From positions 34,482 to 98,481 of the forward strand of contig CAZMPN010000003.1 of NCBI GenBank assembly GCA_964568395.1: a stretch of 64,000 nucleotides of DNA, given 5' to 3'. The stretch is from an uncultured Helicobacter sp. (lineage in GTDB: Bacteria > Campylobacterota > Campylobacteria > Campylobacterales > UBA6016). Below the pieces are notes generated by a model that worked only from the letters and a program-made list of their open reading frames with translations, was not told where the DNA came from and searched no databases. This document shows positions 3,020 to 55,959 of this stretch, piece by piece. The translations under genes were made by a program, and so were the position numbers. The first letter of the stretch is position 1; each line of letters opens with the position of its first letter.

Positions 3020-4810
3020 ATGCCGGGGACAGAAAACACAAAAAAGCTGCTAGCGGAAGTTGTCGAGCTCAGGAACTTCGTAGCAAAAACGGGGAGCGCA
3101 GTAGAAGGGTGTAAAAATCCAAAAAGCCTTATAAACATGAGGCACTATCTAAGGCTTAGACAAAAAGACAACACCGAACTCCAAGATAGGTTGACGAGAG
3201 TCGGCCTATCGTCCCTGGGCAGATCGCAGCCGCATATACTCCACTCCCTCGATTTGATAGTAGAGATGCTCTCCAGATGCCAAAACATTGAGTTCCAAAA
3301 TAGCGAAAACGCACTATCGATAGACGAGGCCGAAGAGATCATGGCCAAGAGGGCGACGATATTCGGCGGGGAGCCGAGACCAAAAAAAAGAGCCGAGACG
3401 AAAATCATGCTCACTCTGCCATCGGAGGCGGCAAAAGAGCCGTCGATGATAGAAGAGTTCGCAAACGCCGGAGTCGGGATATTCAGAATAAATACAGCGC
3501 ACGACGGCCCCGAGGAGTGGGGAGCGATGGCTTCAAAAATAGCCGAGCTAAACCAAAATCTGCATCCGCAAAACAAACTAAAAATCTACGTCGATCTGGC
3601 CGGCCCCAAGATAAGAACTGGAAACATCAGAAAAGTAAAGACGAAAATAAAACTTGAGGCCGGAACAAATCTATACATCACCAAAAAAACCGACAAAGAG
3701 ATATTTGAAAACGCTTACAGCATCGAGGTCGAACCAGAATTTTACAAAAAGGCGAAAAAAGAGGATGAGATACACCTGTCCACGCCCGGAGAAAAAGAGA
3801 GAAGGCTAAAAGTTCTGTCCAGAGGAAAGGACTACATAATCTGCGAGCTAAATAAAAAAATTACGCTTACGGAGAACAGTAGGCTTAGCATAAAGAGGAA
3901 AAAAGCCTTTTACGAAACGGGGATATTAAATATACCGGAAATCACGGAGGAGATAAGGCTCTTCGAGGGCGACACTCTATTTTTATCGATAGACGAGATC
4001 GTCGGATACGCCAAAAATAAAGATAAAAACGACGAAATCGGCGAATCTGCCGCGATCTTTTGCACGCAAAAAGAGTTTACGAAGGATGCGAAGGTCGGCG
4101 ACAAGGTATTCATAGACGACGGCAAAATAGGGCTTAGCGTAATACAAAAACAAAACGGCGGCCTATTGTGCAGGGTAATCCAAACCAAAGCGAAAGGCGA
4201 GACGCTAAAAGAAGAGAAGGGGATAAACTTTCCAGACAGCAGAACATTGGTCGACGCCATAACCGACGAAGACAGGAAGAATCTTGAATACGTACTGGAA
4301 TACGCGGATATACTAGGGGTTTCCTTCGCCCAAAGCGACAAGGACATCATCATGCTAAAGGATATACTGCGGGCAAACAACAAAGAACATATAGCGATAG
4401 TCGCGAAAATAGAGACCAAAATGGCCGTAAAAAATCTGCCTTCGATACTAGAAGCGCTTATGTATCACGAATTTGGCGGAATCATGATAGCCAGAGGGGA
4501 TTTGGCGATAGAGGTTGAGTTTGAGAATATGTCGTATCTGCAAGAGGAGATACTAGACCTTTGCGAGGCGGCGCATACTCCGGTGATATTCGCGACGCAA
4601 GTACTCGAAAACCAGATGAAAAACAACCTGCCTAGCCGTGCGGAAATCACCGACGCCGCTTTCGCCCAAAGAGCCGACTGCGTCATGCTCAACAAGGGAC
4701 CGTTTGCGATAAATACTATCAAAAAACTAGAGTTTATACTAACCAGAATGCACACCATCTTCAAAAAAAACAGACTTCTTCTCGGCCCCTGCGATATATG
4801 GAATAGATGA
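3020..4810 (+). CDS. pyk: Pyruvate kinase, long atypical form
   Basis: RINTAH, DLAGPKIRTG, KGINFP, AKIET, ARGDLAIE, ATQVLE and PSRAEITD match pyruvate kinase A/B-domain motifs. Confidence 0.88.
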   Translation: MPGTENTKKLLAEVVELRNFVAKTGSAVEGCKNPKSLINMRHYLRLRQKDNTELQDRLTRVGLSSLGRSQPHILHSLDLIVEMLSRCQNIEFQNSENALSIDEAEEIMAKRATIFGGEPRPKKRAETKIMLTLPSEAAKEPSMIEEFANAGVGIFRINTAHDGPEEWGAMASKIAELNQNLHPQNKLKIYVDLAGPKIRTGNIRKVKTKIKLEAGTNLYITKKTDKEIFENAYSIEVEPEFYKKAKKEDEIHLSTPGEKERRLKVLSRGKDYIICELNKKITLTENSRLSIKRKKAFYETGILNIPEITEEIRLFEGDTLFLSIDEIVGYAKNKDKNDEIGESAAIFCTQKEFTKDAKVGDKVFIDDGKIGLSVIQKQNGGLLCRVIQTKAKGETLKEEKGINFPDSRTLVDAITDEDRKNLEYVLEYADILGVSFAQSDKDIIMLKDILRANNKEHIAIVAKIETKMAVKNLPSILEALMYHEFGGIMIARGDLAIEVEFENMSYLQEEILDLCEAAHTPVIFATQVLENQMKNNLPSRAEITDAAFAQRADCVMLNKGPFAINTIKKLEFILTRMHTIFKKNRLLLGPCDIWNR

Positions 4811-30965: not shown

Positions 30966-32681
30966 ATGGCTTCCTCACTCGGTTTTTTAGACTCAGCACA
31001 AAACTTCGCCGTAGAAACCCCGATAGTAAAAGACGAATTTACGCATGCGCTCTGCATAGGAGAGACCGGATCGGGCAAGACGACCGGCTTTATACTCCCA
31101 AACATCAAAGACAGAATCTCAAAAAACCACGGCATCCTCGTATACGACTTCAAAGGCAACCTACACCTTGGCGTAAAGAAGCTGGCTCTAGAAGCGGGCA
31201 GGCTAGGGGACGTCATCGAGATAGGCACTCCGTGGGGCAAAAAGACGAATCCTTTCGAGTATATGACGATAAAAGAGATATATACGCTCCTATTCGCCCT
31301 CATCAGCCAAAAAGACACGGAAGGGGTATTCTGGCATTCGGCGGCGGCTACGCTAGGCTCCAATATCGTACGCATCATCAGGCGCATCGGCAAGGTCAAG
31401 GAGTCATTTTCGGAACTTGGGATAGATTTTCCAAAGCTCTCCTTTAGATACTCGGTAGACTTCAACGACAAGATATCGAAGATAGAACACCATTCGCAGC
31501 CTATCAGCGACTATCACGCCGAGGGCTTCGAATATCCATCGTCTGCATCGTTCGCCTCCCTCTACTCCTGTGTGCGCACGGTAAAAAAGCTATGCATGTT
31601 CACCGATGGACATCCGATGCTTGTGGGCTTTCTTAGAGATAAGCTGATTTCGGCGTTTGCCGCCAAGATGAAAAAAGAGTTCGCCAACCAAAACATAGAA
31701 AACGAGTGGCCTACGGTACAAAAAGGCTTCGAGGAGGCTATGCTGCGCATAGAGGAGTTGGATAACAGCTTTGGGATGCTGGATAGCTACAAGTCTATGG
31801 CGGTATCCATCAGCGACGACTTCTCCGGCAACTACGGCGTCATCTTTTCCTTGGAGTCCTCGCTAAAACACTTCTACGACTACAGCTTCTTTAGCGAACA
31901 CGAGTGCGACATCATCGAGGAGCTAAATAACGGCAAGATAGTGGTCGTCAACACTTCGCTACTGACGAACCAGATGATAAACGCCCTCAACCAGTCTATA
32001 GTCCTAAACCTCTCAAAAAGAGCGAAGCAGCCGAGAAAGACGCCGGTATCGATATTTATCGACGAAGCGAATAGGGTAGTGGACAAAAACACCGAGCTGG
32101 CCACCGACATACTAAGAGAGGCCAAGGTGGAGCTTATCCTAGCCATCCAGAACGAATCGCAGATGATATACAAGATGGGGCTGGATAGATACAAGGAGCT
32201 AAAGGGAAATCTGACGGAGCAGATAATCTTTAGAAGCAACGACGAAAACCACATGGTGAAAACCGACAAAGACGTAGAGAGGCTGGCTACGCATACCTAT
32301 CTATCCGGCGAACTCAAAGAGATCAAGTCCACAAAGCCGATATTTTTCAGCGAGGACGAACTGCTGGCCGCCGAACACGAATACCAAAAAAGCCTGCCGA
32401 TAGTCTCGGAACTGCTCTCGATGAACAAGGTCACGGAGCCGACCATAGCGGTATTCGACGACATAGTGTTCGAGCGCGACGACTCCGTATATCTCGAAAA
32501 CATCGAGACCAAAGAGATAAAAAAGATAATATTCAGAAGCGACTCCGAGTACAAAAACGCCCGCGAAGAGCTGGCAAAAATCTACAAATACGTCTTCGGG
32601 GACGAGAGCGAAGAGACATCCACAGCCGACAGCCTGGGCTTCATATCTAGATGGCGCAAGCTGACTAGGGACTTTCGATAG
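30966..32681 (+). CDS. VirD4/TraG/TraD-like coupling-protein ATPase
   Basis: HALCIGETGSGKT (Walker A), LVYDFKG, SIFIDEA (Walker B), LREAKV.LILAIQNESQ. Confidence 0.72.
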   Translation: MASSLGFLDSAQNFAVETPIVKDEFTHALCIGETGSGKTTGFILPNIKDRISKNHGILVYDFKGNLHLGVKKLALEAGRLGDVIEIGTPWGKKTNPFEYMTIKEIYTLLFALISQKDTEGVFWHSAAATLGSNIVRIIRRIGKVKESFSELGIDFPKLSFRYSVDFNDKISKIEHHSQPISDYHAEGFEYPSSASFASLYSCVRTVKKLCMFTDGHPMLVGFLRDKLISAFAAKMKKEFANQNIENEWPTVQKGFEEAMLRIEELDNSFGMLDSYKSMAVSISDDFSGNYGVIFSLESSLKHFYDYSFFSEHECDIIEELNNGKIVVVNTSLLTNQMINALNQSIVLNLSKRAKQPRKTPVSIFIDEANRVVDKNTELATDILREAKVELILAIQNESQMIYKMGLDRYKELKGNLTEQIIFRSNDENHMVKTDKDVERLATHTYLSGELKEIKSTKPIFFSEDELLAAEHEYQKSLPIVSELLSMNKVTEPTIAVFDDIVFERDDSVYLENIETKEIKKIIFRSDSEYKNAREELAKIYKYVFGDESEETSTADSLGFISRWRKLTRDFR

Positions 32682-39556: not shown

Positions 39557-39699
39557 TAGAGGATATATTGTTATCGTCGGCGTTTTTAGTAAGCCGTAAA
39601 TGTTTTGAAATATTTAAAAGCTATAGTCGCGCTTTCAAAAAAATATTTCGCCGCCACGTACTATTCGACAAAAATAAACAATCAAAAAAGCAAAATACC

Positions 39700-41019
39700 A
39701 TGAAGAACATATGCAAGTTGATAATCGGCATGAGCGCAGCCGGTTTGTTTGCCGGGGATACGACGATAAAAAACCCGGAGCAAGAAAGCTGGAACGCAAA
39801 ACTGCAAAGCACGTATATATGGATGAAAAAACCTTCCATAAACAGCCCGTACGCCGGAGATAATTCGCTCAAGGCCGACTCCGAGGGGAGTTGGAGCTGG
39901 AGCGTTACGCCGTCTATAGGTGCGCGCTTATGGAACGGAGGCGAATTCTACTTCAATCTGGAATCTGGAAGAAACCAATCGCTATCCGAACTGCACGGAT
40001 TGGGAGGCCCGGCGAATGGCGACGACCAAAAGGACGGAGGCAAAAAACAGCAATATTTCACCTCTAGGCTGTTCATAAGGCAAGTAATAGGTCTTGGAGG
40101 GGAAAAAGAAAGTATAGCGTCCGATGCGAACCAATTGGCAAGCTCGTACGACAAAAACCGGATAGTACTGACGCTCGGCAAAATCAGCGTAACGGATATA
40201 TTCGACAACAACGCCTTTTCCCACGACGCGAGAACGCAGTTTTTGAACTGGGCGTTTACGACTTACGGCGCATTTGATTATGCGGCAGATTCTAGAGGCT
40301 ATACCGTCGGTATCGCGTCGGAACTATACTATGGCGACTGGGTGTTTCGCATAGGCAGGTTCATGATGCCGACGGATTCGAACGGCAGGTATCTCGATAC
40401 CGCCATCGGGAAGCATTTTGGCGATCAGGTCGAAATAGAACACTCCCACAAAATAAACAATCTTGACGGAAAACTCAGGGCGCTTGTTTTTAGAAATAAA
40501 TCAAAAATGGGAAGTTTCTCGGACGCCGTCAACTACGCCGCACAAAACGGATCGACCCCGGATGTCGCAAACGTCAGGCAAGAATCGTACAAAACAGGAT
40601 ATGGCGTAAGCTTGGAGCAATATTTGACGAAGGATATAGGCGCATTTGCCAGATATAGCCGTGCGGACGGCAAGACCGAAACGTTCGCGTTTACCGAAAT
40701 AGAGCGTTCCGTCTCCTGTGGTCTTTCCATAAACGGCTCATCGTGGGGCAGAGATAAAGATACTCTTGGCATAGCCGTCTCTATAAACGGCCTATCTGAC
40801 GGACATAAGGACTATCTGTCCAAAGGCGGACTTGGCGCGTTCATAGGGGACGGCAAGATCAACTATAGATCCGAGGAGATACTGGAAGGATATTACAGTG
40901 CGAATATAGCGAAAAACTTTTACGCGTCGTTTGACTATCAGCGGATAAACAATCCGGCCTATAATGCGGACAGGGGGCCGGCTGATATCTATAGCGTAAG
41001 GCTTCATTTGGAGTTTTGA
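39700..41019 (+). CDS. OprB-family carbohydrate porin, MnoP-like
   Basis: Start likely the ATG at 39700 (MKNICKLIIGMSAAGLFA, signal peptide); GARLWNGGEFYFNLE, DIFDNN..SHD.RTQFLNW, DY.AD.RGYT; C-terminal Phe. Confidence 0.78.
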   Translation: MKNICKLIIGMSAAGLFAGDTTIKNPEQESWNAKLQSTYIWMKKPSINSPYAGDNSLKADSEGSWSWSVTPSIGARLWNGGEFYFNLESGRNQSLSELHGLGGPANGDDQKDGGKKQQYFTSRLFIRQVIGLGGEKESIASDANQLASSYDKNRIVLTLGKISVTDIFDNNAFSHDARTQFLNWAFTTYGAFDYAADSRGYTVGIASELYYGDWVFRIGRFMMPTDSNGRYLDTAIGKHFGDQVEIEHSHKINNLDGKLRALVFRNKSKMGSFSDAVNYAAQNGSTPDVANVRQESYKTGYGVSLEQYLTKDIGAFARYSRADGKTETFAFTEIERSVSCGLSINGSSWGRDKDTLGIAVSINGLSDGHKDYLSKGGLGAFIGDGKINYRSEEILEGYYSANIAKNFYASFDYQRINNPAYNADRGPADIYSVRLHLEF

Positions 41020-41906
41020 GGATATAGCTTGCAGCTATTGCAATCTTTTCCGCACGGCTCGTGGTGGATAAGCGTATATGCCTGCTCGAATATGGCCTCG
41101 ATATCCGCCTCTATCTTGTCGGCCAATTCGTGCGCTTTTTCTATCGTATCGTATTTGCATACTGTCATATGAAAATCTATATGCCTCTCGGAGCCGGCCT
41201 TCCTTGTTCTAAGATCGTGAAAGTCCAGAAAATGCTGTCTATATCTTTCGATGCTGTCTATTATCTTACCCTCCTCCTCTTCCGGAAGGCTGGCGTCCAA
41301 AAGCGGGGCAAACGACCCCCTCAATAGCTCCCATGCGGCATGGACTATCAGAGCCGCGACCATGATAGCCGCGACCGGGTCAAGCCACTGCCAGCCGGTC
41401 AGATATATGCCAAAAAGCCCGGCCATGACGCCTAGCGAGGTAAGCACGTCCGTTCTTAGATGCATGGCGTCGGCTCTAAGGGCTATGGAGTCGGTCTCTA
41501 TCCCGACCCTCATGAGATGTCTCGATATGAAGAAGTTGACGACAGAGGATACGGCCATGATAGCCACACCCCACCCTACCGCCTCGACCGGATGCGGATG
41601 CAAAAGCTTTTGTATAGCCTCCAGAACTATCCAAAAGGCCGCTATCAATATAAGAACGGCCTCAAGCGTACCGGATAGATTTTCTATCTTTCCGTGCCCA
41701 TATCTATGCTTTGCGTCCGCCGGATGAGAGGCCTGTCTTACGGCGAAAAAAGCTATGATAGCTGCAAGCAGGTCCAACGAGGAGTGTATCCCCTCCGAGA
41801 TTACGCCGACGGAACCTATGGCGACGCCTATACTTAGCTTGCCTATGACCAGCGCCGTATTCGAGATAACCGATAGCTTCGCCGCCTGTTCTTTTGGATT
41901 TACCAT
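41004..41906 (-). CDS. Cation diffusion facilitator (FieF-like)
   Basis: HSSLD and HLRTD transport-site motifs; HRYGHGKIE; HDLRTRKAG; HHEP; Cys-rich tail. Confidence 0.9.
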   Translation of the reverse strand: MVNPKEQAAKLSVISNTALVIGKLSIGVAIGSVGVISEGIHSSLDLLAAIIAFFAVRQASHPADAKHRYGHGKIENLSGTLEAVLILIAAFWIVLEAIQKLLHPHPVEAVGWGVAIMAVSSVVNFFISRHLMRVGIETDSIALRADAMHLRTDVLTSLGVMAGLFGIYLTGWQWLDPVAAIMVAALIVHAAWELLRGSFAPLLDASLPEEEEGKIIDSIERYRQHFLDFHDLRTRKAGSERHIDFHMTVCKYDTIEKAHELADKIEADIEAIFEQAYTLIHHEPCGKDCNSCKLYPQNSK

Positions 41907-41916
41907 ACGCTACCCC

Positions 41917-42885
41917 TTAAAACCAATTTTTCTTTTTGAAATACACAAACGGGATAACCGCCGAGAGCGCCATGACGGCCAGCGAGTAAAAATATCCGTA
42001 CTCCCATTGCAGTTCCGGTATTATCTTGAAATTCATCCCGTAAACGCTCGCTATCAACGTCGGCGGCATCAATACTACGTTTACGACCGTAAAAAGCTTT
42101 ATGATCTTGTTCTGGTCTATGTTGATTTGGCCTATAAACAGGTTTTGAATATTGTCAAGGGCGTTTAGATTGATGGTCGTAAACTCTATTAGCGACGCTA
42201 TATCCTTTATCATGATGGTCAGGTCGTCCCTGTGCTTCTTGGATATTTTGCCGGACTTCAAAAGCCCTATCGTTATCCTTCTTTTATCCGATATCGTCTC
42301 TCTTATCTTCAGATTGAACTCTTGTATCGTAGATATCCTCTCCAATATCTCATCGTCGCTCATTTTCGAGTTTGGCGAAAATATATCCTTTCTGAGTTTG
42401 TTTATCTCCTTTGCCGCATACTCTATAAGCGCGGCGTCCGCCTCGATTCTGTTGTCGAAAATATGCATAAAAATATCATATCCGCTACCCATATCGGAAT
42501 TTGCGCGAAGAAGCCGCCTTTGCGTCTCGTTAAAGCTTTTTAGCTCCTTATATCTCATAGTGAAAAGTATCTCGTTTTTGATAATGAACGCAACCGATTC
42601 GTTGCAGTGATCTTTTGCCTTGTCCGCAAAGAAAAAAGATACGAAAAATAGCGCGTTTATGGATATGGAGTCGCTATCCTCCCAGTATCTGGAGCTGCTC
42701 TCTATGCTTTCCCTCTCTTGCCTGGTCGGGAATTCGACCTCAAACCCATCGCTGATTTTCGATATTTCCGCGGCGGAAGGATTCAATAAGTCGATCCACA
42801 GGATAGACGCCGCATCAAGCGTTTCGATATCGTCGTTTTCGGTATATTTTATTACTTGGTTATTTTTTGTGTATATATTTATCAT
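41917..42885 (-). CDS. corA: CorA magnesium/cobalt transporter
   Basis: WIDLLNPS, QNKIIKLFT, PPTLIASVYGMNF, PEL.W.YGY. Confidence 0.93.
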   Translation of the reverse strand: MINIYTKNNQVIKYTENDDIETLDAASILWIDLLNPSAAEISKISDGFEVEFPTRQERESIESSSRYWEDSDSISINALFFVSFFFADKAKDHCNESVAFIIKNEILFTMRYKELKSFNETQRRLLRANSDMGSGYDIFMHIFDNRIEADAALIEYAAKEINKLRKDIFSPNSKMSDDEILERISTIQEFNLKIRETISDKRRITIGLLKSGKISKKHRDDLTIMIKDIASLIEFTTINLNALDNIQNLFIGQINIDQNKIIKLFTVVNVVLMPPTLIASVYGMNFKIIPELQWEYGYFYSLAVMALSAVIPFVYFKKKNWF

Positions 42886-42980
42886 GCTGCGCTTCCCCTC
42901 TATTGTATTCGGGCGGCCGGCTTTAAGAATGGATATAAAAAAGACGCATCGCTGGAAACTTTCGCGGCAATTACTTTATT

Positions 42981-43046
42981 TTACCGACCGTCCATATGCG
43001 AAAGAAGTACAGGAGATGCGCCGTGTCGCTTAGGGTCGTCGTCCAT
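42981..43046 (-). CDS. Putative 21-aa leader peptide of the corA-CDF operon
   Basis: MDDDPKRHGASPVLLSHMDGR; SD AAAGGAG with 6-nt spacing; 95 nt from its stop to the corA ATG. Confidence 0.6.
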   Translation of the reverse strand: MDDDPKRHGASPVLLSHMDGR

Positions 43047-43078
43047 TGCGCTCTCCTTTGTAGAAATTATTTCGGCGA

Positions 43079-43084
43079 ATTATA
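43079..43084 (-). promoter_or_regulatory. -10 box (TATAAT) upstream of the corA leader ORF
   Basis: ATTATA on the + strand, 32 nt upstream of the leader ATG. Confidence 0.55.
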
Positions 43085-44428: not shown

Positions 44429-45634
44429 TCAAAATCGCAGACACACCTCGTAGATATCGTCTTTCTCAATAAGCTCATACTCCAATCCAAGCTCCAGCGA
44501 TACCCTTTTTAGTATCCTCTCCCCTATTTTCGAGCTGAACATATACTTTTCGCCGCCCTTTTCGTTTTTTATGCAGAGTTTGCGCTCTTTTGCGTCCAAT
44601 TCTATCCGTATGGAGCTGCCCTCTTTTGCATAAGTCATAGCGTTTTCGAGCAGCGCGCCGAGAAGCTTCTGGAACAATCTTTTTTTTGTATGGATGTGCG
44701 TCTTTTCGCACCTTGCCTCTATCGTTATCTGCCGCCTTCTTGAGAGTATCTCCATCTTCGAGACAACTTCAGACGTCAAATCGCATATCTCGAACTCCAT
44801 GCTCTCTTCGAAATCCGACGTCTCAAAGAACAGCACGCTTCTAAGCTCGCTCGAGAGCCTCCCTATATCGCTTCCTAACTCTTTGGCGAACTTATCCTTC
44901 GGATAACCGTCGTCGTCTTCGTACACATCGAGCCTTGCGCGCATAAGCGCCAAAGGGGTCTTTAGCTCATGGGCGGCCTCCTTGAAGAGCTCCTTTTCCC
45001 TTTTGCGATAGTTCTCAAGCCTCCTTATAAGCGCCGAAAAAGCGTCGGCCACAGCGCATATCTCGCTAGGGCAACCGTCTTTTTGGATATCAAACTGGAC
45101 TCCGTCCCTATACTCCTTACATCTTACGACAAGAGCGGATAGCGGTTTCATAAGCCTGTGGACGAAATAGACGCTCGCCGCCAATACTACCAGCAAAAAC
45201 AGGAGATATTTTGCAAGCAGCTTTTCCGTATATCTCAAAATAGAGTAGTTTACTTTTGAATCCGTACTGACGCAGTTTAGATAGTAGCCGCTTTGAAGCT
45301 TCACGTATTCCGCTATTTCGTTTTCAAGCGGCACATAAGGTGATTTTGTTATAAAAAATCTTATCGAATCGGCTTCGGAGTCGTCTATTATCGATATGTT
45401 GTGCGGGACTTTGTATAGATAGGAGATATCGAGCTTGTCATCCGCGTCCTTTGGCAGATATTCGTCCATACTCTCCCATGTCGCATGCGATAACACTTTT
45501 TGCAGGTCTTTTATCTTTTCGGCTCTCAAAGTATCTATGGCGATATAGAGATTGAGCCCGAACGCGACGGCTATAAGCAGCGTAAAGAGCAGCGCTATTT
45601 TTAGTTTTAAGGAGTTAAAAAAGCTATACCTCAA
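44429..45634 (-). CDS. Sensor histidine kinase with a truncated, degenerate ATPase domain
   Basis: Two TM segments; HAMP; AHELKTPL; N box LLENA; no recognisable DxGxG or GxGL. Confidence 0.8.
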   Translation of the reverse strand: MRYSFFNSLKLKIALLFTLLIAVAFGLNLYIAIDTLRAEKIKDLQKVLSHATWESMDEYLPKDADDKLDISYLYKVPHNISIIDDSEADSIRFFITKSPYVPLENEIAEYVKLQSGYYLNCVSTDSKVNYSILRYTEKLLAKYLLFLLVVLAASVYFVHRLMKPLSALVVRCKEYRDGVQFDIQKDGCPSEICAVADAFSALIRRLENYRKREKELFKEAAHELKTPLALMRARLDVYEDDDGYPKDKFAKELGSDIGRLSSELRSVLFFETSDFEESMEFEICDLTSEVVSKMEILSRRRQITIEARCEKTHIHTKKRLFQKLLGALLENAMTYAKEGSSIRIELDAKERKLCIKNEKGGEKYMFSSKIGERILKRVSLELGLEYELIEKDDIYEVCLRF

Positions 45635-46271
45635 TAGTAAACCCTCTGGTCTTTACCGTCTTAATAAGCTGCGGGGATAGTTTTTTTCTTACCCTTGCCA
45701 CCAGCTCATCCACCGTATTTTGCAGCTTATCCTGCGGATTTTCATAGATTGCGTCCATAATCTCCTCTCTGGATGCGATCTGATTTTTCCTGGAGAGCAG
45801 ATAAAACAAAAGTGCGTGTTCGTTTTTGCTAAGAGATACAGGATGTCCACCTTTTGAGACTGTTTTTGAGGAGATATCTATCTCTATATCTTCCATTGCT
45901 ATATTTTTTGGCGCAAACCGTCTGGCGAGAGCTATAAGCCTGGCTTTGAGCTCTTTGATATCAAAAGGCTTTTCCAGATAGTCGTCCGCACCGAAAAAGA
46001 GCCCCTCAACCTTATCGTCCACGGTCGAAAGCGCACTCAAGATCAAAACGCCGCAATTTGGGTTTTTCTCTTTTGCGTAGGCGACCAACTCTTTTGCCTT
46101 ATCCACCCCGTGAAACGTCCTATCGAATACGGCCGCCTGATAGCTAAAAGCGTCCAAAAAAGCTTTCGCCTCGTCCGCCTCGGAGGCGACATCGACGATA
46201 AAATCGTTTTTGAGAGAAATCGCTAGCAGGGACAGAAGCTCCTTCTCGTCGTCGGCGACCAAAATCCTCAT
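45624..46271 (-). CDS. OmpR-family response regulator
   Basis: VADDE, FDR, GADDYLEKPF, TVKTRGF. Confidence 0.9.
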   Translation of the reverse strand: MRILVADDEKELLSLLAISLKNDFIVDVASEADEAKAFLDAFSYQAAVFDRTFHGVDKAKELVAYAKEKNPNCGVLILSALSTVDDKVEGLFFGADDYLEKPFDIKELKARLIALARRFAPKNIAMEDIEIDISSKTVSKGGHPVSLSKNEHALLFYLLSRKNQIASREEIMDAIYENPQDKLQNTVDELVARVRKKLSPQLIKTVKTRGFTIEV

Positions 46272-46562
46272 CTATAAAGACTCCGTAACGTCTATCTGGA
46301 ATATTTTTATACTACCCTCTTTGAACCCAGCCTTTATTCTCTCCAAAAAAGGCTGGAAGTTTTCCGTATCGACAAAAAACTTGAACAGCCCAAACTCCAT
46401 CCTGCCGCTCACCTGCTCTTTGTCGCTTTTGAGAAAAGAGCTAAGCGAGTAGCGTTTGCAGTCGAAGTAGTAAAACTCCTCTACCCCGTTTTCTAGCAAA
46501 AAATCAACGAGCGAATCTTTTATATCCGCTCTAAAATATACGTCAACGGCTTTTTTATTCAC
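46272..46562 (-). CDS. Small PII-like-fold protein (DUF3240-like) downstream of czcA
   Basis: DSLVDFLLE, S.KEQVSGR; usual position after a heavy-metal RND pump. Confidence 0.55.
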   Translation of the reverse strand: MNKKAVDVYFRADIKDSLVDFLLENGVEEFYYFDCKRYSLSSFLKSDKEQVSGRMEFGLFKFFVDTENFQPFLERIKAGFKEGSIKIFQIDVTESL

Positions 46563-49500
46563 TTCTCACCTTTCCTTTCATATAGAGCATTCTAAACGCC
46601 GGAGGGAGTATAAGAAGCGTTAGCGCCGTAGAGGTGACAAGCCCTCCTAATACGACTATAGCGAGCGGTCTTTGAATCTCGCTGCCCACGCCTGTGGCGA
46701 AAAGCAGCGGCAACAGCCCGAGAGCCGCTATAAACGCCGTCATAAGAACCGGCCTAAGCCTTCTTCTGGCGCCTTCCGTTACGGCGTCGTCTATGGAGTA
46801 TCCTTGCGCCAAAAGGGAGAGGAAGTAGCTCACCATTACCACCCCGTTTAGCACCGCGATACCGAATAGCGCTATAAATCCTACCGACGCAGGAACGGAT
46901 AGATATTCGCCGGAAATAAAGAGCGATATAACTCCGCCGGTAATAGCGAAAGGTATATTAAGAAGCACCAGAAGCGTAATCGGCACCGACCTGAACGTAA
47001 AGAACAAAATCATGAAGATTACGCCTATGCTTACAGGGATTACGGTCATTAGCTTCGCGGACGCTCTTTGTTGGTTTTCGAACTGCCCGCCGTACACTAC
47101 CTTATAACCGTACGGGAGCTTGACCTGGGCCGCTATCTTCGCCTTGGCCTCCTCGACAAAACCGACCAAGTCCCTATTCTCTACATTTGCTCTGACTACG
47201 CTAACCCTCTGCGAGTTCTCGCGGTCGATCTTTACCGGACCTTCTATCTCCCTAATATCGGCGATACTGGATACCGGCACGGAGAAGCCGTCCGCCAGCG
47301 GTATCTCCAACGCCCTGAAAAGCTCCGGATTTGAGGATATATTTTTATCCATCCTGAGCATAACCGGAATCCTTGTCGCGCCGACAGGTATATAATCTAC
47401 ATTTAGACCCTCAAGCGACGTTTTTAGAAATTTTTGCAGCTCTGCGGTATCGACACCCGTTTTTGCCGATTCAAGCCTGTTTGGCTCCACAACCAGATAG
47501 TTTACCCCCTCGTTTAGCGTAGTAAACACCTCGGAAGAGCCTTTTATACCCTTTAGCGTAGTCTCTATCTTCTGGCTGAGCTCGTTTAGCTTGGCGATAT
47601 CCGTACCGTATATCTTTACGGCCAGATCACCCCTTGAGCCGGTAAGCATCTCTGAAATTCTCATCTCGATAGGTTGCGTAAAGCTGAAGCTTATTCCGCC
47701 AAAACCGCTCAGGGCTTCTTTTATTTTCTCTTTTATCTCCTCTTTATTTGAGACGCTCCACTCTTTTTTAGGCTTTAGGGTTATGAACGTATCGGTTTGG
47801 TTTAGGCCCATAGGGTCTAGCCCCAGCTCATCGGAGCCGGTACGCGCGACTATCGCCTTGACTTCCGGCACCTTCTCTTTGATCGCCTTTTGTATGGCTA
47901 GGTTTAGCTCTTTCGATTTCTCTAGCGAAATTGACGGAGGGGTCTCGACGCTAAGTATCAAATCCCCTTCGTCAAGGGTCGGCATAAACGCCTTTCCTAC
48001 AAACAAAAAGAGTGTCAGGCTCACCGCCAAAAACAAAAGCGCCCCCATAAAAAGCTTTCTTGTCCTATTTAGCGCAAACGCCAAAAGAGGCTCGTAACTG
48101 CGGCTAAAAAAACGGTCCAGCTTCGTCTCTTTGTGCGGGGCGGCTTTTAGCAAAAACGAACATGCCACAGGAATGACGGTCAAAGAAAGCGCAAGGGAAC
48201 CAAATAGCGCGAATACTATCGTCATCGCCACCGGAGCAAACAGCTTACCCTCCAATCCCTCCAGCGTCAAAAGAGGCAAAAATACGACCGCAATAATCAA
48301 AATTCCGCTAAATACTGCCGGACTCACCTCTTTTGAAGCTCTATATACCTGATGCAGTTTCGGCAGCTTCATATCAGCCTTGCCCAGTCTCGCAAAAGAG
48401 TTCTCGACCATAACTACAGCTGAATCCACCAGCATACCCACCGCTATGGCTAGACCGCCTAGGCTCATAAGATTTGCCGTAAGCCCAAAATAGTTCATCA
48501 TCACAAACGCGAAAGCGAGAGAGAGCGGAAGTATTATACTGACGGCAACGGCGGCTCTGATATCGCCCAGAAACAAAAGCAGCAAAACCACGACCAATAC
48601 GACGGCTTCGGTTAGAGCCTTTGATACCGTATCTACGGCCTGTTGCGTCAAATGGCTCCTGTCATAAAAAGGCTCTATATGCACGCCTTTTGGCAGCTGC
48701 GGCTTAAGCGCCTCTAGCGCCGCCTTCACCTGGGTTATCGTCTCTTTGGCGTTCGCGCCTTTAAGGGTAAGCACAAGCCCTTCGGTCGCTTCGCCCTCCC
48801 CGTTTTTGGTAACAAAGCCCATTCTAGTCAGGGAGTCGTCGGCAACACGGCAAAAATCGCCTATACGAAGCAACCCGTTATGGGAGTGTATGGTGATGTT
48901 CGATATCTCGGATACGCTTTTGACGCCGCTTTCCACTTTGACCAAAAAGCTCTCTTCGCCTTTTGTGACCCTGCCCGCGCCGTCATTCGAGAGATTTGAC
49001 GCAAGCGCCTCTTCAAGCGCGGTTATGGTGACTCCGAGCCTTCTCATGGCCGCAAAGTCCGGCTCGACTACGATGGCTCTAGCTTCTCCGCCAAGAGAGT
49101 TGACGTCGGCGACGCCTTTAGCTCCTCTAAGGGCCGGTCTGATTACAAAATCGAGAAGCTCCCTTTTTTGTTTTTGGCTGATATTGCCCTCAACCGTAAA
49201 CATAAACGCTTCACCGAGCGGCGTAGTGATGGGAGCCATCCCGCCTGTCACGCTTTTTGGCAAAGAGCCCATGGCGGATGATAGCTTCTCGGCCACCTGC
49301 GCCCTCGCGCGGTAGATATCGGCGCCGTCGTTGAAATCTATCGTAATATCGGCTATGCCGTATTTGGAGGTGCTTTTTAGCAGCTTCTCGTTTTCAAGAC
49401 CCAAAAGCTCGGCCTCAAGAGGCTTGACAACCCTGTTTTCCACCTCTTCGGGAGCCATGCCTGGAGCTTTTAGGATTATCTTGACCTGCGTAGAAGATAT

Positions 49501-49626
49501 GTCCGGAAAGGCGTCTATCGGTATTTTAAGAAACGAGTAAACGCCGTGTATTAGCAGTACGGCCGAAAACAGTATTACTACGATTCTCTGTTTTAGGGAA
49601 AACTCTATCAGCTTGTTTAGCATCAC
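46555..49626 (-). CDS. czcA: CusA/CzcA-family heavy-metal RND efflux permease
   Basis: IDAFPDIS..QV, SLGGLAI..GMLVDSAVVMVEN, MPTLDEG, RRLRPVLMTA. Confidence 0.92.
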   Translation of the reverse strand: MMLNKLIEFSLKQRIVVILFSAVLLIHGVYSFLKIPIDAFPDISSTQVKIILKAPGMAPEEVENRVVKPLEAELLGLENEKLLKSTSKYGIADITIDFNDGADIYRARAQVAEKLSSAMGSLPKSVTGGMAPITTPLGEAFMFTVEGNISQKQKRELLDFVIRPALRGAKGVADVNSLGGEARAIVVEPDFAAMRRLGVTITALEEALASNLSNDGAGRVTKGEESFLVKVESGVKSVSEISNITIHSHNGLLRIGDFCRVADDSLTRMGFVTKNGEGEATEGLVLTLKGANAKETITQVKAALEALKPQLPKGVHIEPFYDRSHLTQQAVDTVSKALTEAVVLVVVLLLLFLGDIRAAVAVSIILPLSLAFAFVMMNYFGLTANLMSLGGLAIAVGMLVDSAVVMVENSFARLGKADMKLPKLHQVYRASKEVSPAVFSGILIIAVVFLPLLTLEGLEGKLFAPVAMTIVFALFGSLALSLTVIPVACSFLLKAAPHKETKLDRFFSRSYEPLLAFALNRTRKLFMGALLFLAVSLTLFLFVGKAFMPTLDEGDLILSVETPPSISLEKSKELNLAIQKAIKEKVPEVKAIVARTGSDELGLDPMGLNQTDTFITLKPKKEWSVSNKEEIKEKIKEALSGFGGISFSFTQPIEMRISEMLTGSRGDLAVKIYGTDIAKLNELSQKIETTLKGIKGSSEVFTTLNEGVNYLVVEPNRLESAKTGVDTAELQKFLKTSLEGLNVDYIPVGATRIPVMLRMDKNISSNPELFRALEIPLADGFSVPVSSIADIREIEGPVKIDRENSQRVSVVRANVENRDLVGFVEEAKAKIAAQVKLPYGYKVVYGGQFENQQRASAKLMTVIPVSIGVIFMILFFTFRSVPITLLVLLNIPFAITGGVISLFISGEYLSVPASVGFIALFGIAVLNGVVMVSYFLSLLAQGYSIDDAVTEGARRRLRPVLMTAFIAALGLLPLLFATGVGSEIQRPLAIVVLGGLVTSTALTLLILPPAFRMLYMKGKVRSE

Positions 49627-50669
49627 TCAAATCCCATTCCGCTTAACGCGCCTTTGAGGTTTATTATACCTCCTACCGCTATCTCGCTGCCTGGGGCGAT
49701 ATCGCCCGGTTTTACGTATACGCCATCTTTTGTCTCTCTGAGCACGAACACTTTTTTGGAAACAAAACCTGTTTTGGTTCTGACAAAACATATATCGCTG
49801 TTTTTGTATTTGGTCACCGACGACCTAGGCAGCATCAGAGTACTCTCCGACTTCGGTACGGAGACAAAAAACTCATGTGCGGTGCCAGCCCTAAAACCAT
49901 CCTTTGGAGCCGTAATCTTTACTACGCCAAGCGCAGAGTTGGTAGTCTCGTCGACGCCGCCGGATACTCCGATTAAAGTCCCTATTTTATTGCCGGCCTT
50001 GTCGGTCACCAGACTTCCTTTTTTGATATTGCCAAGCTGCATCGGCGGTATTTTGATATATGCGGCCAAAGACGAAGCGTCGGATATCTTCAGATACGGC
50101 ATAAAAGGCTCGATTTTTTGCCCGCCTTTTTTAGGGGATAGCGACAAGGTCCCATCCATCTTTGCTTTTACGGCAAAGGTTCCATCCCCCAAAGCAAAGG
50201 CTCCGGCTACCCCTAGTCTGCTTTCAAGCTCGGATACCCTAGACGCCAAGGCTGACGCCTCAAGAGAGCTTTTTTGATACTCCCTGAACGATATAACGCC
50301 CTCTTTGTAGAGCATCTCATCTTTTTTTGCATTGTTATTTAAGGCTTTTAGCCTGTTTTGGGCCTCTCTTAATTCAAACACGTTAGCCATAAGCTCGGAG
50401 GAGGATATTATGCAGAGCGTATCGCCTTTTTTGACGACATCTCCGGCCGTTTTAACTATTTTCAGGGCTATGCCCTCGGAGGGCAAGATATAATTTTTTG
50501 ATTTTGCGTCGTCATAGTCGAAACTGCCGACAAACGGCCCGGCGGTCTCGCTTACGCTCATAACGGCCGGTTTTGTGCTAATACCCATTTTTTTCATCCC
50601 GGCTTCGTCCATTTTTATCTCCGCGAACAGGGAAACGGCGGCGGCCAAAAAAACTAAAAACTTCTTCAT
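49623..50669 (-). CDS. RND periplasmic adaptor (CzcB-like)
   Basis: Signal peptide; GDVVKKGDTL; A.MDG; located between the TolC and RND genes. Confidence 0.85.
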   Translation of the reverse strand: MKKFLVFLAAAVSLFAEIKMDEAGMKKMGISTKPAVMSVSETAGPFVGSFDYDDAKSKNYILPSEGIALKIVKTAGDVVKKGDTLCIISSSELMANVFELREAQNRLKALNNNAKKDEMLYKEGVISFREYQKSSLEASALASRVSELESRLGVAGAFALGDGTFAVKAKMDGTLSLSPKKGGQKIEPFMPYLKISDASSLAAYIKIPPMQLGNIKKGSLVTDKAGNKIGTLIGVSGGVDETTNSALGVVKITAPKDGFRAGTAHEFFVSVPKSESTLMLPRSSVTKYKNSDICFVRTKTGFVSKKVFVLRETKDGVYVKPGDIAPGSEIAVGGIINLKGALSGMGFE

Positions 50670-51856
50670 CTTATTACTCCTGCGAAAACCTTTTCGAGTT
50701 TTGCTATTTCTTCTACATACTCTTTTTTATAGGTTATTGTTTTTATCGTCGAATCGAAATAGGCGTTTTTTGCCGCAAGATACTCAAACAACGACACGGC
50801 GCCATTCTCATAACCCTTTGCGGTCATATCGAACACGGACTTGTACAGCTCTTCGTTTGCGATGGAATTTTTTATCTTTTTTTCTAGCTCCACTACTCTT
50901 TGGCTCTCCATCTTCGCCATGATCGATAGTGTATCTTGCAGTACTTTTTGCTTTCTGTTCACGGCGTCCAGTCTGGCCCTAAGCGCAGCTATCTTGTTCT
51001 CGTTCTTGCCAGTTACGTTCAAAGGGAACGAAACACGAAAATCGACGCTTTTTTGTGTCGCCTCTTTGGTCTGTCCGACGCCAAACTCGACCCTGTCTAT
51101 CAGGGAGTACCTATAGCCGCCCATTTCGCCTTCTATCTCTTGTTTTTTCGCTTCCATCTCTTTTACCTGAAGCGACTCTTTACGCAATTCCTCAAGCCTT
51201 TCGCTAAGAGCCGGATAGAACTTGAACCCAAGGTCGCTGATCGTTATCTCGTCATGAGACAAAACCGCATGCGACAAGGCATGATGGAGCTCCTCTTTAA
51301 ACGCTGACGCCGAAGCTAAGTCAACCTTGCTTTGCATAAGTTCCGTCTCAAACCTCGCAAGCTCCATTTTCGAGATGCGTCCCGCATCGAACTTCTTTTT
51401 GGCAAGCTCAAAGGAACGCTTTGCGGCGGCCTCTTTTTGGGTGTATATATCCTCTTCCTCCGAGGCGAGCAGAAACAGCAGGTACGTTCTTTTTATTTCG
51501 CTTTTTATCGCCGTTTTTTGGAGCTCTTCGGAGATATAAAGACCCTTCTCTTTGGCTTCAAATCCTCTTTTTTCGCTTGCTATAATCCAAGGCATTCTGG
51601 TGGAAAAGCCGAGCATGGAGGAGGTTTCGCTCTGGTGGACGGATTCGTCCGTTTTTATCTTCCTCTTGCCAAACTCAAGAGTGAGAGGCTCAAAAGCGAG
51701 CGCCGCCGCTTTATCGTATTTTGCGGCGTTTCTTTCGCCCGCGATATCTATGACCGCCATATCGTTTTTATAGACTTCGTTTACAAACTCGTCAAACGTA
51801 TATACCGAAGCATAAGAATAGACCGCCCCAAGAGCGATCAGCAAGGTTTTTTTCAT
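50666..51856 (-). CDS. TolC-family outer-membrane factor (CzcC-like)
   Basis: Signal peptide; FDAGRIS..EL and YENGAVSLFEYL repeats. Confidence 0.82.
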   Translation of the reverse strand: MKKTLLIALGAVYSYASVYTFDEFVNEVYKNDMAVIDIAGERNAAKYDKAAALAFEPLTLEFGKRKIKTDESVHQSETSSMLGFSTRMPWIIASEKRGFEAKEKGLYISEELQKTAIKSEIKRTYLLFLLASEEEDIYTQKEAAAKRSFELAKKKFDAGRISKMELARFETELMQSKVDLASASAFKEELHHALSHAVLSHDEITISDLGFKFYPALSERLEELRKESLQVKEMEAKKQEIEGEMGGYRYSLIDRVEFGVGQTKEATQKSVDFRVSFPLNVTGKNENKIAALRARLDAVNRKQKVLQDTLSIMAKMESQRVVELEKKIKNSIANEELYKSVFDMTAKGYENGAVSLFEYLAAKNAYFDSTIKTITYKKEYVEEIAKLEKVFAGVIR

Positions 51857-53174: not shown

Positions 53175-55670
53175 CTATACGGCTGTGCGACCGATTGGGC
53201 CATAAAACTTAACAACATCGAACAGCAAAAACATCAAAACGCCTGCCGGCAAAAGCATTAGCCACAAGTACGACTCAAGCGGCGCAAAATAAAACAGCGA
53301 CGCCGCATAGCCGTATTCAACGGCGAAAAAGAGCGCGGATAAAGAGACGCCGATAACGACCGCGTCGACTCTGGACAATCCGCCAAAAACGCCAAAATCA
53401 AACGGCTTCTTCGTTCTTGCGTTAAATATCAATACCGTATTGCATACGATAAGCATCGCGAAAGTGGCGGATCTGGCGACGTTCGTATCCATCTTCAGAT
53501 AATCGGCCAGCAAGACATATACGCCGAAAACAGCGGCGGAAGCGACGGCTCCTTGCATCAGGACGGTCTTAATTTTGCCGGCCGGCAGCAACGGCTCGCT
53601 TTTGCTTCGCGGGGGCCTTGTCATACACTCCCTATCTGCCTTTATAGACTCGAACACAACCGAACACATAGGGTCTATGACAAGCTCCAAAAAAGCTATA
53701 TGTATAGGCGCCAGCACCAACGGCAGACCAAACAAAATCGGCAAAAGGGAGAGGCCGACGATGGGAAGATGTATGGCTATTGTGTATAGCATCGCTTTTT
53801 GAAGATTTGAAAATATGCGCCTGCCGTGCATTATCGCGTTTACGATGGAGCCAAAATCATCATCCGTAAGCACTAGCGACGACGCCTCTCTGGCAACGTC
53901 GCTGCCTCTTTTACCCATCGCTATTCCGATATTGGCGGCCTTTAGGGCCGGCGCGTCGTTTACACCGTCCCCTGTCATCGCCACGATCTCCCTGTTTTTC
54001 TTTAACGCCTCCACTATTGATAGCTTTTGACTCGGGGAAACCCTTGCAAAGACGCATGTCTTGGAGACGCTTTCAAGAAGCGACGGCTCATCCAGGTTTT
54101 CAATATCCACGCCGGTCAAGACGCTGCCGCATTCGATTCCTACGCTGCATGCAACCGCCGATGCGGTAGCGGGATAGTCGCCGGTAATCATAACCACCCT
54201 TATTCCCGCTTTGCGGCACGTCTCGACGGCGTCACGCACACCGTCTTTTATTGGATCGGCCAACCCGACCAAGCCTATAAAATCAAAATCAAAATCATGC
54301 TGATTGCCCGGAAAAGCGGAGCCGCCGTGAGTCGCCTTCGCAACGCCTATGACCCTCAGACCCTTTTTGCCCATATCGGAGGCCATACTGATTATCCGCT
54401 CGGCCTTTGCCCGCCCCAGATGGCACAGATCCACAATCGCCTCCGGCGCGCCTTTCGCGGCTATCGAGCAGTATTCGCTATTTGGCGACTCCCACAAATG
54501 CGACATCGCCATCAGCTGCGGAGTCAGCTCGTATTCTTTAGCTAGATTCCAATCCGTATGTATATGTTCCGTATTCGCAAGATACTCCCCGGCTAACGTA
54601 TAAAATGCCTGTTCCATAGGGTCGTGCGGCTCTATTTCGCTCGCAAGTATGCAATACTCCAGCAGCTCGTGAAATTTTTCCGGCAGCCCCTCATTGTTGT
54701 CAAGCTCGCAAACATCGTCGTCTACCGCCAGCATCTCGACGCGCATTTTATTTTGCGTCAACGTTCCTGTTTTGTCCACGCAAAGGACGGTGGTCTCGCC
54801 CAGGGTCTCGATAGCCCCCAGCCGTCTCGTCAACACTCCGCCGGAGGCAATCCTTACGGCTCCAAACGCCAAAAATATAATCATTATTACCGGGAACTCT
54901 TGCGGCAAAATCCCCATAGCTAGCGTAATCCCGGCCAATACGGCATCAGCCGTAGAGCCGCCTTTCGCCGTATATATAAAACTCACGGCGACGCACAAAA
55001 CTACGCCGACAATCGCCAGGCGCGCGGCGATTTTCGAACTCTCCTCTTGCAGAGGCGACTTGTCGGTATTTATCGTCTCTATGGATTTGCCTATCATTCC
55101 AAGCTGCGTATTCGCTCCTACGGCAACCGTCTCCATAATGGCCTGTCCGGCCACGACAAGCGTTCCGGCGTATAGCTTGTTGTTTTTTTCCGCGTCTTTT
55201 GGAACGCATACCGACTCACCGGTAAGCATAGATTCATCGACGGACAGTTCGTGGCATGAGAGCGCCCTTCCGTCAGATGGCACCCTGTCGCCCTCCGATA
55301 GCATAACAATATCCCCGATGACTATCTGCGTACCTGAAATTCTGGTCGGAACCCCGTCTCTAAGAACAATGGCTCTCGGACTGGATAGCTCCCGTAGTCT
55401 TTGCAGCGCCCTTTCCGTACGCCCTTCTTGTATTACGGTGACTAAAATTATTATAAAAACAAAGCCTAGCAAAACCAGCGCGTCATGCACATCGCCTATC
55501 AAAAGGTAAATTACTCCGGCGCATACCAAGAGAATAAACATCGGCTCTTTTATAACGTCCAGGATGATTTTGAGAGCGCTTCTGGACTCTGACGACTTCA
55601 GGGCATTGGGCCCGTCACTTGAAAGACGCTTTTGGGCTTCAGACGAAGAAAGGCCAATACTATTTGGCAT
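53175..55670 (-). CDS. P-type cation-translocating ATPase (type II, Ca2+-ATPase-like)
   Basis: LTGES, PQEFP, DKTGTLT, KGAPE, MITGD, TGDGVNDAPAL. Confidence 0.92.
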   Translation of the reverse strand: MPNSIGLSSSEAQKRLSSDGPNALKSSESRSALKIILDVIKEPMFILLVCAGVIYLLIGDVHDALVLLGFVFIIILVTVIQEGRTERALQRLRELSSPRAIVLRDGVPTRISGTQIVIGDIVMLSEGDRVPSDGRALSCHELSVDESMLTGESVCVPKDAEKNNKLYAGTLVVAGQAIMETVAVGANTQLGMIGKSIETINTDKSPLQEESSKIAARLAIVGVVLCVAVSFIYTAKGGSTADAVLAGITLAMGILPQEFPVIMIIFLAFGAVRIASGGVLTRRLGAIETLGETTVLCVDKTGTLTQNKMRVEMLAVDDDVCELDNNEGLPEKFHELLEYCILASEIEPHDPMEQAFYTLAGEYLANTEHIHTDWNLAKEYELTPQLMAMSHLWESPNSEYCSIAAKGAPEAIVDLCHLGRAKAERIISMASDMGKKGLRVIGVAKATHGGSAFPGNQHDFDFDFIGLVGLADPIKDGVRDAVETCRKAGIRVVMITGDYPATASAVACSVGIECGSVLTGVDIENLDEPSLLESVSKTCVFARVSPSQKLSIVEALKKNREIVAMTGDGVNDAPALKAANIGIAMGKRGSDVAREASSLVLTDDDFGSIVNAIMHGRRIFSNLQKAMLYTIAIHLPIVGLSLLPILFGLPLVLAPIHIAFLELVIDPMCSVVFESIKADRECMTRPPRSKSEPLLPAGKIKTVLMQGAVASAAVFGVYVLLADYLKMDTNVARSATFAMLIVCNTVLIFNARTKKPFDFGVFGGLSRVDAVVIGVSLSALFFAVEYGYAASLFYFAPLESYLWLMLLPAGVLMFLLFDVVKFYGPIGRTAV

Positions 55671-55806: not shown

Positions 55807-55959
55807 TTATTTAGTAGCGTTAGCTTCTTTTTTCTCTTTTTTAGCTTTGTGTTTTTTCTCAGCTTTTTTCTCACCTTTAGCTTCAGTTTTGTTAGCGTCA
55901 GAAGCAAAAGCGAAAGAAGATAGACCAAGAGCTACAAGTACGGCAAGAAACTTTTTCAT
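55807..55959 (-). CDS. 50-aa secreted Lys/Glu-rich peptide
   Basis: SD GGAG before the ATG at 55959, not 56079; MKKFLAVLVALGLSSFAFA signal peptide followed by SDANKTEAKGEKKAEKKHKAKKEKKEANATK. Confidence 0.75.
   Translation of the reverse strand: MKKFLAVLVALGLSSFAFASDANKTEAKGEKKAEKKHKAKKEKKEANATK

Follow-up and report, generated by a model that had tools for sequence, protein, structure and literature searches.

The corA gene of an uncultured Helicobacter sp. raises the question of whether the short reading frame in front of it works as a Mg2+-responsive leader-peptide switch. The gene lies in a stretch of 64,000 nucleotides (nt), referred to as a whole as the window (assembly GCA_964568395.1, contig CAZMPN010000003.1, positions 34,482 to 98,481), and the leader and the gene are on its minus strand. 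As the original prediction had stated, a -10 promoter hexamer TATAAT (43079-43084) is followed by a Shine-Dalgarno (SD) sequence AAAGGAG (43059-43053), a uORF (upstream open reading frame) of 21 codons plus TAA (MDDDPKRHGASPVLLSHMDGR; 42981-43046), a 95-nt spacer separating the uORF stop from the ATG of corA (42885), and corA (41917-42885); all of these could be read in the sequence. The hexamer, from which a transcription start would be expected just downstream, went uncalled by the promoter scan because it has no -35 match. The end of GGAG is 6 nt from the uORF ATG, and codons 2-5 (GAC GAC GAC CCT; 43032-43043), which encode Asp-Asp-Asp-Pro, are where the ribosome is proposed to pause or to be destabilised. 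The 64 kb contain a single copy of the pattern ATGGAYRRYVAYCC, against an expectation of 0.05, and a search of the window for another MDDDP-like uORF found none. CorA is a magnesium/cobalt channel with a GMN motif (PF01544; TIGR00383), which scores 243 bits against the TIGR00383 equivalog cutoff of 200.75 and belongs to a clade in which YGMNF is unchanging. A CDF cation-efflux gene (41004-41906, minus strand; PF01545, PF16916) follows after a gap of 10 nt and is probably co-transcribed with corA; the same gene order was found in loci L021, L116, L119 and L124, and the CDF protein is nearest to MntE and FieF, with scores under both cutoffs. We read the leader as a cis-acting leader-peptide switch for corA-CDF of the MgtL/MgtQ kind, separately evolved, and put the probability of this reading at about 0.5. 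It has the features of that kind, namely a short open reading frame (ORF) with its own SD 5' of corA, an Asp/Pro motif after Met, and a uORF that overlaps mutually exclusive helices, through which expression would be affected. What the comparison of related loci establishes at the level of sequence is the conservation of the uORF, the conservation of its N-terminal motif, and three helices.

The corA loci were taken from genome and metagenome collections, and the 450 nt 5' of each were scanned for small ORFs. This check, proposed together with the original prediction, showed that an SD-preceded M-D-x-x-P uORF is conserved 5' of corA in 11 distinct leaders, with CorA identities of 54-99% and uORF lengths of 17-23 codons. 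An acidic/Pro-start, SD-preceded ORF was present in every locus with a CorA 66-99% identical, and a second uORF-bearing group had CorA proteins 54-57% identical. Type I leaders start with ATG and encode MDDDPKRHGASPVLLSHMDGR (window and L021), MDDDPKQNSASPNTPSK (L111), MDDDPQSKNTHLFATFLARTA (L022), MDDNPRSTNTSPFSIYACGRF (L023), MDDNPRSSNTSPFSVYACGRF (L115), MDDNPRKIGTSPFGIYACGRFKK (L112) and MDDHPRNISTSSFGIYACGRFMI (L123). Type II leaders (L032, L033, L119 and L124) start with GTG, encode 23-codon peptides beginning MDSDP[N/S]S, and have a spacer of 162-185 nt with a pyrimidine-rich tract. The distance from the end of GGAG to the start codon was 5-8 nt in 12 of 12 leaders, and wherever the sequence reached far enough upstream, a TAnnnT hexamer was seen to begin 33-39 nt 5' of the uORF start. 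In the window the leader has trpB on its 5' side; the corresponding neighbour is RNase P RNA in L022, DUF4337 in L023 and L115, and a divergent mgtC in L112, and since these neighbours differ among loci, the leader travels with corA. The bacterial RNase P RNA of L022 (2398-2729; RF00010, 242 bits) lies approximately 50 nt 5' of the putative leader promoter, so that the leader there, which has a -10 box to itself, is self-contained. The mgtC of L112 (104-841, minus strand), situated approximately 280 nt 5' of corA, connects the leader with Mg2+ physiology by an independent route. In L023 the leader and corA are placed between a resolvase gene (1259-1816) and a Tn3-family transposase fragment (3978-4271), the latter occupying the position of the CDF gene in other loci, which hints that leader-corA moves on mobile DNA.

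Outside this group the element was absent from the loci compared. Approximately 70 corA loci at no more than 55% identity were scanned, and among these a uORF was found only in the 55%-identical type II loci L032 and L033, the remaining hits (L034 and L069) being long ORFs 391-448 nt 5' of corA. In L113 and L114 (CorA 58% identical) a 90-nt promoter region contained no uORF, and the Sulfuricurvum-type corA (50-54% identical) has pgk 12 nt upstream (1489-1500 in L120-L122, which are 54% identical) and no leader; the element thus belongs to a single corA subclade, and to date is known only from a narrow uncultured clade. The window leader matched no Rfam family at E values up to 10, the leaders of nine related loci were unmatched at the gathering score, and the M-box (ykoK) covariance model matched neither the window leader nor the related loci. 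Nor was homology found with the mgtA leader of enteric bacteria (MgtL together with the Rfam Mg-sensor RNA), and the regulated gene is corA, not mgtA. CorA and other window proteins have uncultured Campylobacteraceae as closest named relatives, and remoter CorA relatives occur in Sulfuricurvum, Sulfurimonas and Helicobacter, so that the placement in Campylobacterota stands. Both this host lineage and the lack of Rfam matches fit the idea, already voiced in the original prediction, that the element evolved independently.

Three helices were recognised in the leader RNA, formed from five segments. In the window, segment 1 consists of the uORF SD and spacer (43048-43059) and is the 5' strand of helix 1:2; segment 2 (GGCGCAUCUCCU; 43011-43022) is an anti-SD at codons 9-12 of the uORF, a shared strand whose possible partners are segment 1, segment 4 and the corA SD. 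Segment 3 (GGACGGUCGG; 42984-42993) is the uORF 3' end and pairs with segment 5 (CCGGCCGCCC; 42911-42920), both having been located by RNAalifold and pair counts. Segment 4 (42937-42950), the 3' strand of helix 2:4, is made up of GAUGCGUC (42950-42943) and a following U6 (42942-42937), and the corA SD region is GAGGGGAAGCGC (42889-42900). Helix 2:4, in the window GGCGCAUC (43022-43015) with GAUGCGUC, had been proposed from the single sequence, and when the type I leaders were aligned without bias by MAFFT, RNAalifold gave it as the sole long consensus helix; it has 9 base pairs (bp), 4 of which are changed on both sides (compensatory), and a loop of approximately 60 nt. Helices 3:5 and 1:2 go beyond the original prediction and change the logic of the leader from the scheme it had drawn. 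Helix 3:5 joins GGACGG at the uORF 3' end to CCGNCC 5' of the corA SD (consensus GGRCGGYY with RRCYGYCC, the 3' strand 30-60 nt before the corA start), and was returned by RNAalifold on the 3' sub-alignment. For helices 2:4 and 3:5, 85% of cells were paired, relative to 31-44% with the partner slid, and both-side changes were counted in 9 pairs of the anchored segments, a count that leans towards structure because the segment anchors were hand-chosen by the analyst. In four of five measures, 0-1 of 500 shuffles reached the observed values, and the search for covarying helices in corA leaders, another of the proposed checks, gave support to both. Helix 1:2 pairs the uORF SD, spacer and start with the segment 2 anti-SD (CAUCUCCU, codons 9-13), with a free energy (dG) of -19.2 (z = -3.4) in the window and of -14 to -23 kcal/mol across type I (z of -3.4 to -6 in most); 81% of its cells were paired, relative to 48-60% when slid. 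A further pairing of the earlier scheme, between CGGUAA and UUGCCG, is possible in the window sequence and was rejected, being outside the minimum free energy (MFE) fold, without a counterpart in relatives, and in competition with the conserved helix 3:5.

Helices 1:2 and 2:4 are mutually exclusive because one strand is common to both, while helices 2:4 and 3:5 cross and would be either alternatives or, the loops of 9-35 nt being long enough, a pseudoknot. In L022 the 8-mer AGGUGUGU is found both in the uORF SD region (2833-2842) and in segment 4 (2932-2940); segment 4 is there a near copy of segment 1 and competes for the same partner, and a looser form of this mimicry was seen in the other lineages. 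The corA SD can pair with the uORF anti-SD in all type I leaders, outside a nested helix 3:5 (a long rod), and this anti-SD:SD rod is the MFE fold of the window, in which UCUCCU pairs with AGGGGA of the corA SD. The stability of the whole window leader was unremarkable relative to shuffled sequence (z = -0.19). The 1:2 state, with or without 3:5, was at or near the ground state and the 2:4 state 2-13 kcal/mol above it, so that segment 1 should have to be blocked for the 2:4 state to form, as it would be by a ribosome on codons 1-5. For all six type I lineages the corA SD was predicted to be more accessible in the 2:4 state, if often only modestly. Helix 2:4 has a 5' strand that starts 24 nt after the A of the AUG, which by standard toeprint geometry places the start of the helix immediately beyond the boundary of a ribosome whose P site holds codon 3 or 4.

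In the peptide, the conserved part is the N-terminus only, M-D-[D/S]-[D/N/H]-P, common to both leader types. Within codons 2-5 all four third positions are variable, relative to three of the eight first and second positions, a pattern of coding constraint. Residues 2-5 include three or four Asp/Pro across leaders, and in some lineages the motif falls short of EPDP. Past this motif the peptide sequence drifts among leaders, as do the uORF length and the frame relative to the RNA elements: a +2 nt shift downstream in L022 alters the frame relative to the RNA elements, the uORFs of L112 and L123 are two codons longer, and the uORF of L111 stops four codons early, with GGACGG falling after the stop. 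Segment 3 is accordingly an RNA element and not a peptide element, as it lies 3' of the stop codon in L111. Downstream of the N-terminal motif the uORF is constrained as RNA. A type I covariance model, with which 460 kb were searched, found only corA-upstream type I leaders and missed type II. This division of constraint bears on whether the leader could be an RNA-only element, a riboswitch-like structure binding a metal or a protein, with the ORF as a by-product of conserved RNA. Three conserved helices, two of them able to form a pseudoknot, and a uORF constrained for the most part as RNA are what such an element would produce; it would leave unexplained the proper spacing of SD and start codon in every one of the 12 leaders, an open frame of 17-23 codons in each lineage, the concentration of third-position variation in codons 2-5, and the retention of MDSDP in type II although the type I model misses its RNA. 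With no Rfam family matching either, we regard an RNA-only element as highly improbable.

The peptide motif points to a class of nascent chains with known behaviour. An Asp/Glu/Pro-rich stretch right after Met aborts translation, an effect enhanced by low Mg2+ and by loss of bL31, and in the 17-residue MgtL of Escherichia coli (MEPDP...) the first six residues are where abortion takes place, and low Mg2+ increases it (bioRxiv 10.1101/2021.02.02.429294). MgtL exploits this abortion to turn mgtA on (bioRxiv 10.1101/2021.02.02.429294; PMC11552253), and in MgtQ, of 8 codons, Asp2 and Glu5 alone are required to free the mgtB SD (PMC8092293). By analogy, the leader studied here, of approximately 190 nt and beginning some 20-26 nt 5' of the uORF, would depend on the peptide only for Met-Asp-[Asp/Ser]-[Asp/Asn/His]-Pro, the remaining uORF acting as RNA. 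The short Asp/Pro-rich nascent chain would slow elongation and destabilise the ribosome, more strongly at low free Mg2+. At low Mg2+, ribosomes would stall or drop off at codons 2-5; a ribosome in that position would prevent helix 1:2, and the 3' two-thirds of the uORF would be uncovered during transcription of segments 4 and 5, allowing helices 2:4 and 3:5 to form, possibly jointly as a pseudoknot. The anti-SD would in this way be kept from the corA SD, and corA-CDF would be ON. With ample Mg2+, ribosomes would reach the stop codon, covering segments 2 and 3 in that time window, and the corA SD would end up paired, through the rod (anti-SD:SD plus helix 3:5) or through a local hairpin (L023 group), with low expression of corA-CDF. 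We infer from the arrangement of these elements that the uORF is translated, that Mg2+ governs the outcome, in which direction control runs, and at which step it is exerted (corA SD access, Rho or a terminator).

A number of observations weigh against this reading. The model is not unique, because helix 3:5 belongs to the proposed ON fold and to the OFF rod alike. The opening of the SD predicted for the 2:4 state is modest (for example, from 0.26 to 0.30 in L022), and equilibrium folding with ribosome footprints masked (over codons 4/5, codon 11 or the stop) changed corA SD access in no consistent way. The covariation derives from approximately six independent lineages, with the segments for the pair count anchored by hand. 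Of the acidic start 'DDDP' on which the original prediction had relied, Asp2 and Pro5 are the only invariant residues after Met, residues 3 and 4 varying (D/S and D/N/H, respectively), which makes for a weaker core; the L023-type and type II peptides have three Asp/Glu/Pro in the first ten residues, borderline relative to the published 'more than 3 in 10'. The U-run that follows helix 2:4 in the window and in L022 would point to the reverse polarity, and the relevant cation might not be Mg2+, because corA-CDF in the window adjoins a CzcCBA-type operon for heavy-metal efflux.

The U-run leads to a version of the same switch with reversed polarity and a transcriptional output, in which helix 2:4 and the U-run would constitute an intrinsic terminator, or Rho would act on bare leader RNA. 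A ribosome trailing RNA polymerase through segment 2 would block the terminator, giving the ON state with efficient uORF translation, and ribosome loss at Asp-Asp-Asp-Pro would permit 2:4, giving OFF at low Mg2+; in an alternative form, helix 1:2 would be the anti-terminator. The U-run that the original prediction had placed after the main helix is present in the window, where GAUGCGUC is directly followed by U6, and in L022 a 13-bp stem within the MFE fold is followed by UUUUGUAUUUUG; it is, however, kept only in these two (the window/L021 lineage and L022) of the six type I lineages, and is missing from the leaders of L023, L115, L112, L123 and L111. The terminator scan called no classical intrinsic terminator in the leader, in keeping with the earlier impression that no strong one was present, and the loop of helix 2:4 is, at approximately 60 nt, a further point against termination at this site. 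The same three observations (a U-run in the window and L022 only, no called terminator and the long loop) bear on whether the leader may be an attenuator of the trpL kind. As for Rho, the enteric mgtA and corA leaders have such an output (PMC11552253), and in type II leaders the interval from helix 2:4 to corA includes approximately 60 nt of G-poor sequence rich in pyrimidines (CACUUCUUCUUCUCUCCCAUUUUAUCCAUUUAUUUUUCUUAUC; approximately 1390-1460 in L032, with equivalents in L119 and L124), a tract that resembles a Rho loading site; this tract was seen in type II leaders alone, with none evident in the window. An importer turned OFF at low Mg2+ would moreover be contrary to all three known precedents, and we consider reversed polarity with a transcriptional output unlikely.

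The identity of the signal is a separate matter, and the surroundings of the locus bear on it. Directly 5' of trpB, the leader, corA and the CDF gene, and on the same strand (44429-51856, minus), is a CzcCBA-type heavy-metal efflux operon with genes for an outer-membrane factor (50666-51856), for a membrane-fusion protein (49623-50669) and for an RND pump of the CusA/CzcA family (46555-49626; TIGR00914, 978 bits), followed by a two-component system with a response regulator (45624-46271) and a histidine kinase (44429-45634), all on the minus strand; together with the corA-CDF region it looks like a cation-homeostasis island. A translated regulatory uORF could respond to something other than Mg2+, such as general translation capacity, EF-P activity, the supply of Asp- or Pro-tRNA, or another cation handled by the CorA-CDF pair (for example, Co2+, Ni2+, Mn2+ or Zn2+), or could simply gate corA through the shared anti-SD, with uORF and corA translated alternately. 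The conservation of uORF and helices fits these cases; Asp-Pro bonds and Pro codons are known to be slow steps of translation, and both the operon partner, a CDF exporter nearest MntE and FieF, and the heavy-metal island around corA-CDF in the window would fit another cation. The Pro codons of mgtL and mgtP have been tied to proline supply, in work cited in PMC8092293. The regulated gene, on the other hand, encodes a genuine CorA that carries the GMN motif, the leader has mgtC next to it in L112, and the Asp/Pro motif stands right after Met, where Mg2+-sensitive destabilisation is strongest. Asp3 and Asp4 are replaceable, so that there is no run of identical 'hungry' codons. A signal other than Mg2+ is in our view doubtful, if somewhat less so than the reversed polarity discussed above.

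Other features of the window lie further from the leader. A type II P-type ATPase gene (53175-55670, minus strand) was examined as a candidate mgtA and rejected, its best score being for PMR1-like Ca2+ ATPases and below every equivalog cutoff, including that of the Mg2+ type. No acidic uORF was found 5' of it; the gene is preceded instead by a secreted-type small ORF of 50 residues (55807-55959, minus strand), whose start resembles a signal peptide and whose tail is Lys-rich (MKKFLAVLVALGLSSFAFASDANKTEAKGEKKAEKKHKAKKEKKEANATK). The CDF gene and a convergent porin gene of the OprB family (39568-41019, plus strand) overlap at their 3' ends by 16 nt (41004-41019), and a gene for a type IV secretion coupling protein (TraG/VirD4-like; 30966-32681, plus strand) suggests a conjugative element in the window.

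Compared with the known systems, the corA leader under the favoured reading resembles that of MgtL in having a short uORF in the leader of a Mg2+ transporter, an Asp/Glu/Pro motif right after Met, and a uORF embedded in mutually exclusive leader helices. It differs in lacking sequence or Rfam similarity, in controlling corA-CDF instead of a P-type ATPase gene, in encoding one Pro as opposed to four, in having a shared anti-SD that pairs with both SDs and helices 2:4 and 3:5 that cross, in the absence of a PhoP-type promoter context, and in belonging to another phylum; the output of the mgtA leader is Rho-dependent, whereas for the corA leader here Rho is one candidate output among others. In Salmonella and E. 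coli, corA itself is under the uORF corL, which likewise lies 5' of corA inside a leader with alternative folds; its translation is inverse to corA expression, and corA responds to intracellular Mg2+ (PMC11552253). CorL, however, starts with UUG, is poor in acidic and Pro residues, and acts through Rho-dependent termination (PMC11552253), and similarity to the present leader was not detected. The closest match to the proposed output is, by analogy, MgtQ of Salmonella, located between mgtC and mgtB, where N-terminal acidic residues (Asp2 and Glu5) are needed and a ribosome on the small ORF re-pairs an anti-ribosome-binding site and frees that of the transporter gene (PMC8092293); MgtQ is intergenic within an operon and not in a 5' leader, has 8 codons, regulates mgtB, and is unrelated in sequence. 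Translational attenuation of ermC and cat shares the logic of an early-stalled ribosome that blocks a hairpin, an alternative pairing then exposing the downstream SD, but the inducer there is an antibiotic in the exit tunnel, and here it would be the stability of the ribosome on an Asp/Pro chain. The M-box (ykoK) is also a cis-acting leader of Mg2+ transporter genes, but is a direct, RNA-only Mg2+ sensor. A more specific version of the favoured reading can be put forward tentatively, as a possibility that we rate well below the reading as a whole: the leader may be a convergent Campylobacterota Mg2+ sensor in which the stability of the ribosome is reported by an N-terminal Asp/Pro nascent chain and a single anti-SD within the uORF arbitrates between the uORF SD and the corA SD through the pseudoknot-capable helices 2:4 and 3:5, with an output at translation initiation and without Rho.

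Full-text literature searches returned no paper joining corA or mgtL uORFs with Campylobacterota and no mention of MDDDP in a leader-peptide context, in line with the original prediction, which knew of no description of such a system in this phylum; the interpretation given there is, as a whole, partly supported. To our knowledge, Mg2+ sensing by acidic/proline leader peptides has been shown in Enterobacteria only (MgtL, MgtQ and possibly CorL). Judged by its conservation, the Asp/Pro corA leader is real, and we found no earlier description of it; the kind of mechanism is known from MgtL and MgtQ, and the corA leader form itself is new. With a minimal Met-Asp-x-x-Pro motif, a leader of approximately 190 nt and three defined helices, it offers a compact test system in which natural variation at residues 3 and 4 already supplies mutants, and corA leaders are worth screening for such uORFs, since gene callers miss them. 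If the favoured reading is true, a second, unrelated origin in another phylum, at the universal channel CorA, would make the principle general and not an enteric peculiarity, and under the more specific version nascent-chain destabilisation of the ribosome would be a general, repeatedly invented gauge of cytoplasmic Mg2+.

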